NCBI GenBank assembly: GCA_963746845.1
Contig: CAVVCZ010000009.1
Location: 1-64,000 of the forward strand
Source of the DNA: an uncultured Chloroflexia bacterium
GTDB taxonomy: Bacteria > Chloroflexota > Limnocylindria > Limnocylindrales > CSP1-4
Direction of reading: 5' to 3'
DNA length: 64,000 nt
In this document: one piece after another, positions 38,297-44,012 of the stretch
How the letters are laid out: the number at the start of each line of letters is the position of its first letter
Position numbering within the stretch: position 1 is the stretch's first letter
Program-made: the position numbers and the translations under genes
Notes under the pieces: generated by a model
The model's input: the letters and a program-made list of their open reading frames with translations, nothing else
Databases searched by the model: none
What the model was told of the DNA's origin: nothing

Positions 38297-38611
38297 GGCG
38301 GCCGATCCTAGCAGCGGTCCGCTGCCGCCCTCATGGTCGTCGCGTGCGTCGCGGCGGGGCGCGGGGGCGGCTCCGGAGCGACCGACCACCGACGTGCGCA
38401 GACTCGCACCCGAGGAGCGTTCGGACCTCTTCCTGACCGGATCTGGCGTTCTGTGGGGCCGAGTCACGCTCGGGGAGGCGGCTCCTGGTCCGGATTCAGG
38501 CCCGAGGCTGCTTCTTGCGGTCCCCGGACGTACGTCTGAGCAGGTCGGGCCAGGATGACGTCACCACCATTTCTCGCGCGGGTCGCAGAGGGCCTGAGCT
38601 GCCCGCGCAGG

Positions 38612-38857
38612 TGTCAGATCGACGCCCCATGTCGAGTAACGATCGCCGGGTCCGATTTGCCGGCCAGATCGTCACGGGGCGACGACAAGGCGCGCTCAGC
38701 GGGTCGGGACGCACGTTCGGCAGCCCCGACTGAGCGTGGACGCGGCTTCGATGGGCCCGATCTTGCCTCCCGAGCGCGCCTCATCGTCACGGGATGTCGA
38801 TCTGGCACCGGAATCGAGAGGTCTCGCAGTTCATCGACGCCCGATGTCGATGTGGCA
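38612..38857. repeat. Four-motif palindromic element A (246 bp)
   Basis: 27-bp motif forward at 38612 and 38662, reverse at 38781-38807 and 38831-38857. Consensus KGHCAGA-TCGWCR-N5-YGWCGA. Confidence 0.8.
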
Positions 38858-38889
38858 GGCGCGCGGCGCGCGGCGCGGGGCGCGGCCGC

Positions 38890-39342
38890 TCAGCGATCGG
38901 CGCGGATGACCTCGACCGGGCACGGGGCTCGCTCGGAGACGCTCATCGAGACGCTGCCGGCGATCGCCCGGCCGATCCGACCGCGGCCATGACTGCCCAC
39001 GACGATACGGCTTGCCCCCTCGGCGAGGGCCGCCTCCACGAGGCAGGTGACCGGGTCACCGTTCCAGATCAGGACCTGCACATGGACACCAGCGGCCCGT
39101 GCGCGGTCCACGAGCCGCGCCGCGTCGCGGTTCCGCTCGTCGCGGACCTGGTCGAAGCGCTGACGGAACCGTCCACCGGGCAGCCGCAGCCCGCCCGGGT
39201 CGATCGCATGGACGGCGAGCAGGGGCGAACCCTCCCGCTTCGCCCGCTCGATCGCAGATCGTTCGGCGGCGGCGCTCGCCGGCCCGAAGTCCGTCCCGAG
39301 AAGGATCGGCCCGGAGCCCGCAGCGTCCGCCAGCGTGGCCAT
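38890..39342 (-). CDS. Universal stress protein (USP)
   Basis: ILLGTDFGPAS, GDP, IVVGSHGRG, AGSVS..APCPVEVI. Confidence 0.92.
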   Translation of the reverse strand: MATLADAAGSGPILLGTDFGPASAAAERSAIERAKREGSPLLAVHAIDPGGLRLPGGRFRQRFDQVRDERNRDAARLVDRARAAGVHVQVLIWNGDPVTCLVEAALAEGASRIVVGSHGRGRIGRAIAGSVSMSVSERAPCPVEVIRADR

Positions 39343-39344
39343 CG

Positions 39345-40670
39345 TCACCCCGCCGGGCCCGGGATCCGGCACAGGTACGACGTCGACCCGGCCGCGACCG
39401 CCGCGGACCGGATCGGATCGGCGGTCGCGGCCCCAGCGGTCGCGCTCGCGAGTCTGGCCGAGGCGGTACCGGGCGCCTGGATCACGAGCGCTGTCACCAT
39501 CCCGAACATCCCGTTGGTCCCTTCGGCGTGGGGCAGGATGTGGCAGTGAAAGGCCCAGACCCCTGGGTCCTCGCACTTGACGATCACGTCCCAGCGCTCG
39601 CCGGGGTTGACGCCGAGCGTGTCCGCGAAGAACGGCGACGCGAGCGGATATCCGTCGCGGGCGACGACGTGGAACGGCATCCCGTGGAGATGCCACGGGT
39701 GCATCATCGAGCCCTCGTTCATGAACCGGATCGCGATCGTCTCGCCGACCGTCGCGACGATCGGCGACGTCGCCGGGAAGCCGCGTCCGTTGATCGTGAA
39801 CCCGCCGAGCGAGTCGTTCGAGATCCAGATGATGTCCTGGGTCACGCCGTACTTGCGGTCGTGGCGCTCCGCCGCGTCCTTCGGCTGGACGATGAACGCC
39901 CCGAGCAGCCCGCGGCCGACCTGGTCCGTCGCGTTGTGGTGCGAGTGGTACATGTGCGAGCCGACGGTCCGCGCCGTGAACTCGTAGGTGAACGAGTCGC
40001 CGGGCTTGATCGGGTCCTGGGTGATCAGCGGGACGCCGTCCATGTTGTTCGGGATCCGCTGGCCGTGGAAGTGGATCCCGGTCGATTCCGGCAGGTTGTT
40101 CTTGAAGATCGCCTTGATCCGGTCACCCTCGGTGACCTCGAACCGGGGCCCCGGCCACGTCCCGTTGAACCCGAGCGCGTCGACCGGATCCTTGACCGCG
40201 TCGACCTGGTGCTTGATCGGGTCGACGGTCATCTCGTAGACCTTGACGCCGCTCTCGACGCGGGTCGGCTCGAGCGGCTGGTTGCCGGCGCCCGGGAGCT
40301 TCGAGCCCTCACCGTCGAGGAAGCGCTGGACGACGGCCTGGGCGGCGGCATCGTGATCGGCCGGTGCGGGGGAGCCGGACGCACCCGGCGCGGCCGATCC
40401 GGCCGGCTCGTGGCTGGCATGGTCGCTCGACGGGGCCGGGCTCGCGCTCGGTGCCGGCGCCGCCGGCGTGGACGACGGGTTGGGAGGGTAGCTCCAGGAC
40501 GGCGCTGCGGCCGCCGGCGCACACGCCGCGACGGCGACCGCGACGAGGCCGCCGCCGGTCATGGCCCCGGCACGCAGGATCGCGCGGCGGCTCAGGACGG
40601 AGGCGGCCGAAGGGTTGACGGGGGTCGGGTCGAGGGGGGACGGCGCCGCCTCGGTCTGTGGATCGAGCAT
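39345..40670 (-). CDS. Tat-exported two-domain multicopper oxidase (probable lipoprotein)
   Basis: SRRAIL..VAAC, HFHG, YHSH, HPWHLHG, HCHILPHAE..GM. Type-1 Cu Cys only in domain 2. SD GGAGG. Confidence 0.88.
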   Translation of the reverse strand: MLDPQTEAAPSPLDPTPVNPSAASVLSRRAILRAGAMTGGGLVAVAVAACAPAAAAPSWSYPPNPSSTPAAPAPSASPAPSSDHASHEPAGSAAPGASGSPAPADHDAAAQAVVQRFLDGEGSKLPGAGNQPLEPTRVESGVKVYEMTVDPIKHQVDAVKDPVDALGFNGTWPGPRFEVTEGDRIKAIFKNNLPESTGIHFHGQRIPNNMDGVPLITQDPIKPGDSFTYEFTARTVGSHMYHSHHNATDQVGRGLLGAFIVQPKDAAERHDRKYGVTQDIIWISNDSLGGFTINGRGFPATSPIVATVGETIAIRFMNEGSMMHPWHLHGMPFHVVARDGYPLASPFFADTLGVNPGERWDVIVKCEDPGVWAFHCHILPHAEGTNGMFGMVTALVIQAPGTASARLASATAGAATADPIRSAAVAAGSTSYLCRIPGPAG

Positions 40671-40779
40671 GGGGGAACGATCACCTCCGGCTGTCCGACG
40701 CGGCACGTGCCGGACGGCCCGTGGTCGTGTGCCGGAGGTCACGAGCGGGCCGGTGACGTGACGCAGTAGGCTCGCGAGC

Positions 40780-41961
40780 ATGCCAGAGCTGCCCGACCCA
40801 GCGCCCGCCGAACCTGCACCGTCGACCATCGACGCGGCGGCGCTTGCCGCGGTGGATGCCGCCGCGCGCGCGATCTCCAGCGTCTTCGGGGTCGACGAGG
40901 TGCTGCAGCTGATCGTCGATCGCATCCGGGACCTCGTCGACGCGCGTTATGCCGCCCTCGGGATCGTCGGGCGGGACGGGCGGATCGAGCGGTTCATCAC
41001 CGCGGGCATGGACGCGGAGACGCGCGCGGCGATCGGCGATCTGCCCCAAGGTCGCGGCCTGCTGGGGCTGATCATCCGCGAGAACCGGGCGTACCGGATC
41101 CCGTCGATCGCGGACCATCCCGACTCGTCCGGCTTCCCGCCGAACCACCCGCCGATGACGTCCTTCCTCGGTGTCCCGGTCACGGCCCACGGCGTGTCGG
41201 TCGGCAACCTCTACCTGACGGACAAGCGCGGGGCGGCCGAGTTCTCGCCGGCCGATCAGAGCCTGGTGGAGACGTTCGCCCTCCACGCGGGGATCGCGAT
41301 TGACAACGCCCGTCATCACGCGCAGGCCCAGCGACTGGCCGTCGCCGACGAGCGGGACCGGATCGGTCGGGACCTGCACGACGGGATCATCCAGTCGCTC
41401 TATGCCGTGTCCCTGTCGCTGGAGGACCTTCCGGACCTGATGGCGGAGTCCCCGCCGGAGGCCGAGCGACGGATCGACAGCGCGATCGACGCCCTGAACC
41501 TCGCGATCCGCGACATCCGCAACTTCATCTATGGGCTGCGGCCGGAGGCGGTCGACGGCAGCCAGGTCGTCGCCGGAATCGCGGCGCTGGCCCAGGAGAC
41601 GCGAGACGGGGGTCTGCTCGACGTCGTCGCCGACCTGGATCCGACCGCGGACCCCGGGCTCAGCCCCGAGGAAGGAGGCGAGCTGCTCCAGCTCGTCCGC
41701 GAGGTGCTGAGCAACGCCGCCCGACACGCGAAGGCCCGCCGCATCGAGGTGAGCCTGCGGCGAACCGCCGGCGGGACGGAGCTGGTCATCGCCGACGACG
41801 GGATCGGGTTCGACCCCTCGACCGCGCGCGGCGATGCCCACCATGGCCTGCGCAACATGCGGGTCCGGGCGGAGTCGATCGGTGGCACGCTCGCGGTGGT
41901 GTCCGCCCCGGGCGACGGCACCCGCGTCGAGGTCAGCCTGCCGGCACGCGCTCCGGACTGA
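40780..41961 (+). CDS. GAF-domain sensor histidine kinase (HisKA_3; DevS/DosS-like), no adjacent response regulator
   Basis: ARYAALG, GRGLLG, HPDSSGFPPNHPPMTSFLGVP, GNLYL, ERDRIGRDLHDGIIQSL, SNAARHA, DDGIGF, GLRNMRVRA. Confidence 0.92.
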   Translation: MPELPDPAPAEPAPSTIDAAALAAVDAAARAISSVFGVDEVLQLIVDRIRDLVDARYAALGIVGRDGRIERFITAGMDAETRAAIGDLPQGRGLLGLIIRENRAYRIPSIADHPDSSGFPPNHPPMTSFLGVPVTAHGVSVGNLYLTDKRGAAEFSPADQSLVETFALHAGIAIDNARHHAQAQRLAVADERDRIGRDLHDGIIQSLYAVSLSLEDLPDLMAESPPEAERRIDSAIDALNLAIRDIRNFIYGLRPEAVDGSQVVAGIAALAQETRDGGLLDVVADLDPTADPGLSPEEGGELLQLVREVLSNAARHAKARRIEVSLRRTAGGTELVIADDGIGFDPSTARGDAHHGLRNMRVRAESIGGTLAVVSAPGDGTRVEVSLPARAPD

Positions 41962-41966
41962 GACAC

Positions 41967-42211
41967 GGCCAGATCGTCGTCAGGTGTCGGTTACGAGCCG
42001 GCTTGGCCGAATCGCATGCCAGATCGGCGCCCCGTGACGACAAGGCGGCGTAGGACGGCGGATTCGAGGGCTGTCCGGACCGCTTCGTGCGGGGATCCGC
42101 TGCCGGAGGGTCACGAATCGTCTTCGAGTGTGCCGAGTCGACACGGGCTGACGATCTGTCACCCAATCGCGGGTGTTTCGCGTGTAGTCGTCACTCCACG
42201 TCGATCTGTCA
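41967..42211. repeat. Four-motif palindromic element B (245 bp)
   Basis: Same motif forward at 41967 and 42017, reverse at 42135-42161 and 42185-42211. Same geometry as element A. Confidence 0.8.
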
Positions 42212-42246
42212 GGAGTCGACGATCGGCGAGGCGAGCGGGAACGGGC

Positions 42247-43242
42247 TCAGGTCCGGGCGAGACCCCGACGGCGGATCTCGGCCGAGATCGCGGGCACGAC
42301 CGTGTGGAGGTCGCCGATCACCGCATAGTCGGCGACGCCCATGATCGGAGACTCCGCGTCCGTGTTGATCGCAAGGATGTGTTTCGCTGCCTTGCAGCCG
42401 ACGATGTGCTGGATCGCGCCGCTGATGCCACAGGCGATGTAGAGATCCGGTGCGATCCGCAGGCCCGTCTGGCCGATCTGGTCGCTGTGCGGACGCCAGC
42501 CCGCGCTCGTGACGACGCGCGACCCGCCGACCGCGCCGCCGAGCAGCCCGGCCAGCTCCTCCAGGTCCCCGAACCCCTCGGTGCTGCCGACGCCGCGACC
42601 GCCGCCGACGACAACCCTGGCGTCGGTCAGCGAGATCCGCCCGCGCTCCGACGCCTCGCGGCTCGTGACATGGACCGCCAGGTCGGCCGGGGCCAGGGTC
42701 ACGGCGGCCGCCTCGACGGCCGGCGCCGGCGACGCGTCGGCCTCCGAAACCGCGACGGTGTTCGGTGCCACCGTCAGGAGCGCGGTCGTCGCGTCGAGCC
42801 AGCAGTCCTCGATCAGGCTGCCGGCCCAGCGCTGTCGGCTGAGGCGCCAGCGCTCGCCGGGCTCGACGGCGAGGACATTCGCGGCCATGGGCTGGCCGAG
42901 CCGCGCCGCCACGCGCGCGAGCAGGTCGTTGCCGCGCTCGGTCCCGGTCCCGACGACCGCCGATGCGCCGCGCACCGCAGCGACCTGGGCGATGGCCGCT
43001 GCCCAGCCGTCCGGGTGGTCCGTCGTCAACGCCGCGTCCTCGACGACGATCGCCGTCGCGACCCCGCGACCTGCCAGCGCTCCGGCCGCCACGCGACCGG
43101 CCGCGCCATCGGCAATGACGACGGCCTCGACGACGGACCGTGTCGCCGCCGCGATCCCGCGAGCGATCGCGACTGCCTCCAGCGAGCCGCGGTCCAGCGC
43201 GCCTTCAATTGGCGTCACCAGGGCGAGGACGGGTCCGCTCAT
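42247..43242 (-). CDS. etfA: Electron transfer flavoprotein alpha subunit
   Basis: ARVVVGGGRGVG, VGGSR, QIGQTG, LYIACGISGAIQH, AINTD. ATGA coupling. Confidence 0.93.
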   Translation of the reverse strand: MSGPVLALVTPIEGALDRGSLEAVAIARGIAAATRSVVEAVVIADGAAGRVAAGALAGRGVATAIVVEDAALTTDHPDGWAAAIAQVAAVRGASAVVGTGTERGNDLLARVAARLGQPMAANVLAVEPGERWRLSRQRWAGSLIEDCWLDATTALLTVAPNTVAVSEADASPAPAVEAAAVTLAPADLAVHVTSREASERGRISLTDARVVVGGGRGVGSTEGFGDLEELAGLLGGAVGGSRVVTSAGWRPHSDQIGQTGLRIAPDLYIACGISGAIQHIVGCKAAKHILAINTDAESPIMGVADYAVIGDLHTVVPAISAEIRRRGLART

Positions 43243-44012
43243 CCGTCCAGCACCCCGATCTTCACGAGCATCTCGACGACCGCCGGTGCCGCCTCCGCGC
43301 CCTGCCCGAGGACCGTCGCGGTCGTGACCTCCTCCTGGGGCAGACGGAGGACGATCTTCTCGAGCCCGCCGGGCGCCCACGCGGGAGTCGACCGCTCGAC
43401 CTCCTTCTTCTTCGCCCGGAGCCGGCCCGGGACGGACGGATAGCGCGGGAGGTTGATGCCCTCCTTGACGGACACGACGGCCGGCATCGGCAGCTCGAAC
43501 GATTCCCAGCCGCCCCCGACCGCCTCCCGCCGGGCGGTCGCGGTCCCGTCGGCCAGACGGATCGCCTTCGCCCCGGTCACGCATGGCCGGCCGAGCGCGG
43601 CCGCCACCCGGATCCCGACCTGGAAGCCGCCGCTGTCGGCGGACTCGTTGCCGAAGAGGATCAGGTCGAACGGGCCGGCGGCCGCCTCCTGCGCGCGGAT
43701 CGACGCGACGATCGCCTCGGCCGTCGCGACCGGGTCCCAGTCCCGTCCGTCGGTCTCGAGCAGGACCGCCCGCTCGATCCCGATCGCCATCGCGTCGCGG
43801 AGCTGCTCCTCGGCCTCGGCGGGACCCAGGGTCAGCACCGTCGTCGTGCCGCCCTGCGCCTCGACGATCCGGACGGCCTCCTCGACCGCGCACTCCTCGT
43901 GCGGGCTGATCGTGAACCCGAGATAGCGGGTGTCGATGTCGGAGCCGTCCGGGGTGAGAACGATCCGCCCGCCCGTCGCGGGGACGCGCTTGACGCAGAC
44001 GAGGATGTTCAC
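43239..44012 (-). CDS. etfB: Electron transfer flavoprotein beta subunit
   Basis: ILVCVKRVP, AVEEAVR, LTLGP, DLILFGNESADSGGFQVG, NLPRYP. GTG 44012. Confidence 0.93.
   Translation of the reverse strand: MNILVCVKRVPATGGRIVLTPDGSDIDTRYLGFTISPHEECAVEEAVRIVEAQGGTTTVLTLGPAEAEEQLRDAMAIGIERAVLLETDGRDWDPVATAEAIVASIRAQEAAAGPFDLILFGNESADSGGFQVGIRVAAALGRPCVTGAKAIRLADGTATARREAVGGGWESFELPMPAVVSVKEGINLPRYPSVPGRLRAKKKEVERSTPAWAPGGLEKIVLRLPQEEVTTATVLGQGAEAAPAVVEMLVKIGVLDG

Follow-up and report, generated by a model that had tools for sequence, protein, structure and literature searches.

A stretch of 64,000 nucleotides from an uncultured Chloroflexia bacterium (the window; positions 1 to 64,000 of contig CAVVCZ010000009.1) holds two short elements, A and B, each built of four copies of a palindromic site, two in forward and two in reverse orientation, and both belong to a family of 13 copies in the genome. 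Orthologous copies in related species keep the sites while the spacers between them randomise, and the transposase families that we tested are missing from the main carriers. Our preferred reading, which we hold tentatively and with slightly less than even confidence, is that the elements are an orphan family similar to the miniature inverted-repeat transposable elements known as MITEs and to the inverted doublets of repetitive extragenic palindromic sequences (REPs) called REPINs, kept as a four-site nucleoprotein assembly by a putative dedicated DNA-binding partner.

The four-site element and its copies in the genome

The initial annotation, made from the window alone, had placed eight sites in A and B. 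A check of the window sequence recovered all eight in position and strand, together with the 50-bp distance in all four site pairs, the order of two forward and two reverse sites, and total lengths of 246 bp for A and 245 bp for B. Element A is flanked by a GMC-oxidoreductase gene, whose 5′ end faces it, and by a universal-stress-protein gene, whose 3′ end does; on the two sides of B, a GAF histidine-kinase gene and an ETF-alpha gene converge with their 3′ ends. Their parts are as follows, with the weight-matrix score of each site in brackets:

38612..38857, no strand assigned: element A, pseudo-palindromic repeat of 246 bp (weight matrix and covariance model)
38612..38638, plus strand: site A1, outer left (32.5 bits)
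38662..38688, plus strand: site A2, inner left (28.1 bits), with GGC at 38689-38691
38732..38739, plus strand: central box of A, GAGCGTGG, element positions 121-128
38781..38807, minus strand: site A3, inner right (37.6 bits)
38831..38857, minus strand: site A4, outer right (31.8 bits)
41967..42211, no strand assigned: element B, 245 bp (weight matrix and covariance model)
41967..41993, plus strand: site B1, outer left (28.7 bits)
42017..42043, plus strand: site B2, inner left (31.9 bits), with GGC directly after
42087..42094, plus strand: central box of B, the GTGCGGGG variant, element positions 121-128
42135..42161, minus strand: site B3, inner right (34.3 bits)
42185..42211, minus strand: site B4, outer right (34.0 bits)

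To scan the genome that holds the window (G000; 3.56 Mb, 12 contigs, ∼92% complete), as the annotation had proposed, we built a 24-nt weight matrix from the eight sites and applied it at a cut-off of 14 bits, with a block-shuffled genome as the control. With this cut-off there were 85 matches in the genome and 15 in the shuffled control, the latter being weak, and the strong matches make up 13 full elements of 236–247 bp in the two-forward/two-reverse order, spread over nine contigs. The only strong solitary site lies at C4:178159, and weak matches outside the elements number ∼17, against the 15 of the shuffled genome. The 26 half-elements align ungapped over 93 columns, 18 of them invariant, with the 50-bp spacing in 26 of 26 arms. 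A sequence-only covariance model made from this alignment (R1) recovers 25 halves at E-values from 6e-16 to 2e-22 and the 26th half as two weaker matches; its further matches are a half at C2:293024 that has decayed and, at C4:178134, a solo end. The claim of an exact spacing thus stands for G000 but not for its relatives, where the arm spacing of some copies is 48–51 bp and total length runs from 228 to 303 bp. Among the 26 halves, the sites have a mean pairwise identity of 0.80, the dyad centres one of 0.51, the spacers 0.46 and the outer flanks 0.37, with 0.29 for random sequence of the same base composition.

Each site consists of an A/T patch ∼5–9 nt upstream, the leader TGCCAGA and a dyad, with a conserved A three bases past the dyad. 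The dyad had been written as TCGWCR-N5-YGWCGA; it is present, but its true form is 7-3-7, TCGWCRY-N3-RYGWCGA. The inner sites are more conserved than the outer ones and are directly followed on their 3′ side by an invariant GGC, and the GACGACAAGGCG noticed after A2 and B2 belongs to this feature. The elements also hold an asymmetric central box, G[AT]GCG[GT]GG, that had escaped the annotation; it lies at positions 121–128 in 10 of the 13 copies, five in each orientation, while two shortened copies are without it and one has a displaced variant. Because the box recurs in the versions of the element in G016, G059, G060 and G061 (see below), we regard it as a hallmark of the family. A role like that of Chi or of the FtsK-orienting polar sequences (KOPS) was rejected, as the octamer is not over-represented genome-wide (184 observed versus 176 expected). 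As a side observation, five sites in four of the G000 elements (C1:73408, C4:72580, C4:72630, C6:440387 and C10:26251) have TTCCCG where the left half-site is otherwise TCGWCG, with a TTCGCG form at C6:440609; orthologues in G057 share the variant, which may be a second site class.

The arms of an element are inverted copies of each other, giving terminal inverted repeats whose conservation spans CC-TGCCAG to CTGGCA-GG, and the copies are small, non-coding and dispersed in the manner of MITEs, with spacers too diverged for a conserved open reading frame (ORF). The annotation had recognised no named family in them, and the curated Rfam models agree, giving only a chance-level match of 22 bits against a gathering score of 60. 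Searches of the literature on Limnocylindria and Chloroflexi repeats, MITEs, transposition, REPIN/RAYT systems and Correia elements gave no description of this family. The main text of a Limnocylindria genome paper (2026; PMC13212565) is without the word ‘repeat’, and that of a MITE review (2024; PMC10969869) does not mention Chloroflexota or subterminal sites.

Conservation of the sites at orthologous loci

The sites were compared with those of two congeners, G016 (7 contigs, ∼92% complete) and G057 (20 contigs, 59% complete), whose coding flanks are 76–86% and 79–92% identical to G000, respectively. At the four loci shared by G000 and G016, across ungapped arms, 235 of 304 site positions are identical (77%), compared with 87 of 208 positions in the spacers (42%) and 54 of 80 in the dyad centres (Fisher test of sites versus the rest, p 8e-13). 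Since odd variants are common to the orthologues, for example CATCTCG or CATTTCG instead of CAGATCG, these copies share descent. The annotation had supposed selection on site identity and arm spacing, and this is borne out: with orthologous sites 77% and spacers 42% identical, the comparison indicates that the site positions are under purifying selection in place, at each locus. The comparison of G000 with G057 gives 69% versus 49%, with four of the eight arms out of register.

What is conserved resembles a duplex site and not a hairpin. When the dyads are treated as helices in the in-register alignment, 86.2% of 312 cells pair, a share hardly different from the 85.8% of shuffles (it was reached in 204 of 500), and the W-W pair is unpaired in 24 of the 52 sites. 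Because there is no base-pair covariation, we take the sites for double-strand protein sites and not REP-type hairpins. The palindromy is then that of two independently conserved half-sites one helical turn apart, as is characteristic of a protein that binds duplex DNA as a dimer. Within an element, the left spacer bears no relation to the right one, so no long hairpin extends past the sites; folded as RNA, element A does only modestly better than its shuffles (z −2.4).

Distribution and turnover among relatives

Within the genus, 4 of 43 genomes match at an E-value of 1e-6 or better: G000 itself, G016 with ∼15 elements, G057 with ∼11, and G051 with two halves. A draw of 151 genomes from the order gave matches in six genomes and in 5 of 28 genera, every one of them from the family to which the window belongs (5 of 108 genomes), with 0 of 42 for the small-genome sister family. 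A scan of a species-representative genome collection for an exact two-site pattern returned 100 stretches, of which 80 were re-scored with R1. Seven of these were strong (at least 36 bits) and two weak, the remainder being chance matches in unrelated taxa, and all nine supported stretches come from metagenome-assembled genomes (MAGs) of Chloroflexi, Chloroflexia or Candidatus Limnocylindrales. Metagenome contigs gave ten pattern stretches. Four were true matches, each of either the G059 or the G000 type, and no longer version was among them; viral contigs gave 0 matches to the two-site pattern. Among the genomes sampled, the carriers are restricted to Limnocylindria-type Chloroflexota.

The annotation had suggested comparing empty with filled orthologous loci, and presence/absence between species is seen at several of them. 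Of 15 loci with an element in G016, four are shared with G000, seven are without the element there, one is partial (a solo end in G000, next to 1.9 kb of different DNA) and three were not judged; of 12 such loci in G057, five are shared, five lack the element in G000, one holds other DNA and one is without a counterpart. At three loci the element is present in both G016 and G057 and not in G000, and, provided that G057 is the closer of the two to G000, to which the identities of the flanks point, we infer that these would be losses in G000. Loss can also be seen between alleles, as C2:293024 and C10:26079 are strain variants of the same locus and the C2 allele has lost the element's left half and centre. 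The contig ends of this assembly overlap at 95–98% identity over 2–13 kb (C6/C10, C5/C11, C5/C9, C2/C10 and C3/C7), and for this reason it seems to hold two strain variants of some regions. The single remaining candidate for a target-site duplication is one of 8 bp, in a filled/empty pair at L021.

A younger branch is found in G059, the genome behind L044 (listed a second time, under another genus, as G150). The left-arm model matches it ten times, and six aligned copies of ∼275 bp are 62–81% identical (mean 72%) over the whole element, 64% in the centre and 37% in the flanks, compared with 55% over the whole element and 40% in the centre for the G000 copies. The spacers can still be aligned throughout, and so we consider the G059 family the younger; its uniformity is as expected from a burst of copying and could well reflect one. 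Orthology across genera was considered for L149, L025 and L031 and rejected, the shared neighbour gene lying on the other side of the gene cluster. Taken together, the origin and turnover of the family are like those of non-autonomous mobile DNA.

Search for a mobilising enzyme or partner

The annotation had seen no cognate enzyme in the window, and this absence extends to the whole genome for the eight enzyme families that we tested. No match to rve, DDE_Tnp_1, DDE_3, DDE_Tnp_ISL3, DEDD_Tnp_IS110, Y1_Tnp or Resolvase was found in G000, G016 or G057, and the sole trace of the eighth family, Transposase_mut, in G000 is a 37-residue IS256-type remnant with an in-frame TGA (C2:88927-89037), which has no element site within 2 kb. 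Other genomes of the genus do carry these enzyme families: rve, absent also from G051, is present in 14 of the 43, and G010, which has no element, has rve and DDE_Tnp_1 matches. Y1_Tnp matched in 0 of 5 genomes searched, while the control genomes matched. Tyrosine recombinases amount to one XerC/D-like pair per genome, plus fragments, in G000, G016 and G057. Eighteen insertion-sequence (IS) loci from relatives, 68 kb in total, hold no site of 12 bits or more, and a self-comparison of G000 returned paralogous genes and overlapping contig ends as its long repeats, with no IS copies. In G000, G016 and G057 the elements are thus now orphans with no recognisable transposase, and because all eight families were negative, a partner, if there is any, would come from another or an unrecognised family.

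The canonical dif site was located for comparison. G000 has a single one at C4:720651-720681 (C4:720657), with an AT-rich core (CGATAAGAGAAGTTATGT), and exactly one counterpart is present in each of G016, G057, G059 and G060; all are unlike the element sites. A fixed place of the elements relative to dif was rejected, with distances of 51 and 132 kb in G000 and of 0.83–1.69 Mb on the large contig of G016.

Genomic neighbourhood and element pairs around gene blocks

All 13 G000 copies are intergenic, and their 25 nearest flanking genes belong to unrelated housekeeping families, among them PCMT, PIG-L, RmlD, pyruvate dehydrogenase E1, a TetR regulator and MFS transporters; RNase HII, ribosomal protein L19, KdpD, aldehyde dehydrogenase and GT87; luciferase-like oxidoreductases, MoxR, GNAT, class II ribonucleotide reductase and GMC oxidoreductase; and Usp, multicopper oxidase, the GAF kinase and ETF-alpha. 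Some copies have convergent 3′ ends on both sides, others separate tandem genes or lie upstream of a start, and one is in the rplS-rnhB gap. Since the neighbours have no common function and the placement is mixed, an operator regulon is disfavoured. Three unknown proteins beside elements (P0001, P0002 and a 273-aa ORF in L015) have a membrane or secreted look and not that of DNA-binding proteins. The ETF-alpha ORF next to B (42247-43890, minus strand, 547 aa) has Pfam domains only from residue 228 onward, and for this reason the true start probably lies downstream of the listed one. G000 also holds ∼20 copies of a second repeat of ∼130 bp, which is unrelated to the first and is present in G016 and G057 as well (examples are L031:3131-3260 and G000 C7:95389-95514; no Rfam match), with several copies directly beside four-site elements or at the loci scored as ‘empty’ in G000.

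In the window, A and B bracket a block of three genes (38890..41961):

38890 to about 39300, minus strand: Usp gene
39345-40925, minus strand: multicopper oxidase gene
40780-41961, plus strand: GAF-HisKA_3 kinase gene

In G002, the block and both elements are missing and the flanking genes stand 259 bp apart, while G057 and G016 carry a multicopper oxidase at the locus without the elements. The whole island between the GMC-oxidoreductase and ETF-alpha genes (38297-42246) varies in size, from 259 bp in G002 and ∼4 kb in G000 to ∼10 kb in G057 and ∼32 kb in G016. A second case of bracketing occurs in G016, where two elements enclose 3.0 kb with an M64-type peptidase with FG-GAP repeats and an unknown protein. 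The G000 counterpart is 42 bp long (C6:130651-130693) and holds one site-like remnant whose dyad centre is 7 nt instead of 5 nt. The genes bracketed by element pairs encode no DNA enzyme. These two cases may reflect coincidence in variable intergenic hot spots, composite mobilisation, or recombination at the elements. As for an inversion of the element centre, divergence between orthologues is too great to show one: in three of four pairs the forward orientation has a slightly better fit, and in the fourth neither orientation fits. Low-depth Logan contigs from four runs included none spanning an element and both flanks, and no joint at an element.

Interpretation

We consider how such an element could work if it is kept by a dedicated partner. 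Every copy would assemble a defined nucleoprotein complex in which each of the four dyads is occupied by a dimer of the same sequence-specific protein. The two inner ones would lie on the same side of the helix, since their centres are 115 bp, or ∼11 helical turns, apart, and the central box could be a bend or the site of a second factor that joins the two arms. The binding protein would be dedicated, single-copy and inherited with the elements, because strong sites are found only inside elements and elements only in a few species. This would be a partnership of the REPIN-RAYT kind acting on duplex DNA, with a protein from a family outside those tested. A more far-reaching version is unlikely as a whole. 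In it, this is a second long-lived repeat-protein partnership next to REPIN-RAYT, in which a single-copy duplex-binding protein of an unrecognised family, neither an HUH enzyme, nor of a tested DDE family, nor a serine recombinase, nor an extra tyrosine recombinase, would copy and maintain the elements in genomes that otherwise lack the tested IS transposases, and element pairs would also mobilise or delimit islands.

Several observations weigh against a partner-kept assembly of formerly mobile DNA. No binding protein was found, and so binding itself is something we infer; the enzyme tests covered eight families only; and a longer version with the same ends enclosing an ORF, which the annotation had suggested looking for, is present in none of the genomes searched. 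No target-site duplication stands out from the null: flanking repeats of the 13 G000 copies have a mean longest length of 4.1 nt, versus 4.2 nt for mismatched flanks. The locus at G000 C10 ∼9110, one of the three putative losses in G000 and one of two empty sites that had looked clean, was rejected as such, because there the whole intergenic region has been deleted and the element not excised. Total length varies among the G016 copies (228–303 bp), and G057 has 1–3-bp indels between or inside sites in 4 of 8 orthologous arms, although these are possibly assembly errors given its 59% completeness on 20 contigs. Decaying copies exist, namely the C2:293024 allele, solo sites, three-site versions and the two shortened copies that lack the box. 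Finally, copies were found through the site model, so that decayed orthologues would have been scored as absent and the apparent conservation is inflated, and most relatives are incomplete MAGs, in which repeats often stay unassembled.

The best-surviving rival, which we nevertheless think rather unlikely, is that the elements are immobile and have been exapted as host architecture, anchoring an ordinary nucleoid-associated protein or regulator for supercoiling, insulation or the ending of transcription. Purifying selection on the sites in place and the absence of the tested transposases from the carriers are in accordance with such a role, as is the position of many copies at most 60 bp from stop codons, between convergent or tandem genes. 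However, with 39 of 43 congeners lacking the element at an E-value of 1e-6, a general factor would have to have targets in a few species only. Strong solitary sites are absent elsewhere in the genome, the elements hold no consistent position relative to dif in G000 and G016, and the younger, more uniform G059 family points to copying.

Alternatively, the elements could be selfish MITEs in decay and without present function, whose parent was lost or lies outside the assemblies and whose conservation is an effect of ascertainment, which we consider improbable. The loss of the left half in the C2:293024 allele, the solo sites and three-site versions, and the three loci with an element in G016 and G057 and not in G000 are what decay would leave, and IS copies are often missed in MAGs. 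In contrast, neutral decay predicts equal identity in sites and spacers, which is not what is seen at loci fixed in synteny and aligned in the same ungapped frame, and both G000 and G016 are ∼92% complete, yet without the tested transposases.

More improbable still is that the elements are sites of site-specific recombination, either as borders of gene blocks in the manner of attC or pdif or as flanks of an invertible centre. Element pairs do bracket a block that is absent from a relative in two cases (the window block versus G002, and G016 versus G000), and the central box is found in both orientations, which differ between the two orthologues in one pair of four. However, the carriers lack any serine recombinase, and their tyrosine recombinases do not go beyond the XerC/D-like pair, whose canonical dif is unlike the element sites; G057 and G016 hold part of the window block without elements; 11 of the 13 copies stand alone; and the orthologous centres are too diverged to reveal an inversion.

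The two remaining explanations fare worst. An array of operators through which a transcription factor controls neighbouring genes is suggested by the 17-bp dyads, which are of operator type, and by four copies that end 56–90 bp upstream of a start codon, but it is very improbable with neighbours that are functionally unrelated, several copies between convergent 3′ ends and no solitary operators elsewhere in the genome. Single-strand hairpins of the REP/REPIN type moved by a RAYT are scarcely credible: the likeness to REPINs drawn by the annotation holds for the inverted doublets, the intergenic position and the long persistence, and the RNA fold of element A would suit it, but it does not extend to the stems, which show no compensatory change, to the enzyme, as no RAYT-type (Y1_Tnp) gene is present in any of the 5 genomes searched, or to the unpaired GTAG or CGTC tag that stands next to the 8–9-bp stem of REPs (PMC3733652) and is missing here, and because of the first two points we do not count the family among REPs or REPINs.

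Comparison with known systems

Bacterial genomes rarely keep repeats for long. REPINs with their RAYT are the only exception that is well studied, and they have raised the question of whether repeats of this kind may be beneficial partners and not parasites. The four-site elements are an independent case, in a barely studied, uncultured lineage of soil and sediment, and the discovery of a partner protein would bring to light either a new system of DNA binding or transposition or a host's recruitment of dead mobile DNA for a structural purpose. With four sites, fixed phasing and one central box, the element is a precise substrate for work in vitro.

Among systems with several sites, the ends of Tn7, Mu, IS21 and the inverted repeat-direct repeat (IR-DR) class of Tc1-type elements carry several transposase sites each at set distances, for the assembly of a paired-end complex, and these sites bind DDE transposases of the rve or Tc1 type. 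The four-site elements likewise have more than one site per end; unlike those systems, they stand in genomes (G000, G016 and G057) with no rve or DDE_3. Xer-dependent dif/pdif modules and integron cassettes are repeated sites that bracket gene blocks differing between relatives, but the element sites are unlike the genome's own dif, and there is no integron-type or additional recombinase. The bacterial interspersed mosaic elements BIME-1, or repetitive IHF-binding palindromic (RIP) elements, of enterobacteria consist of two inverted palindromic units flanking a central site for a bending protein, the units being REP hairpins; they differ in a far higher copy number and are not known to have a phasing of two units per arm.

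The likeness to REPIN-RAYT systems (PMC3116915; bioRxiv 10.1101/2021.07.10.451892) lies in short, non-coding, intergenic inverted doublets in tens of copies or fewer, in persistence at orthologous loci, in restriction to a lineage and in a partner expected to be single-copy in both. In contrast, REPs are single-strand hairpins with compensatory changes that are cut by a Y1/HUH transposase, whereas the four-site elements have dyads without covariation, no Y1 gene, two sites per arm at 50 bp, and a central box. Correia elements of Neisseria (PMC2649163; PMC10969869) are similarly small, with inverted-repeat ends, a conserved core and orphan status; elements of both kinds can lie inside operons, and the Correia core binds the architectural protein IHF (PMC10969869). 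Correia elements belong to another phylum and have a proven IHF site and one inverted repeat per end, whereas each end of a four-site element carries two dyads.

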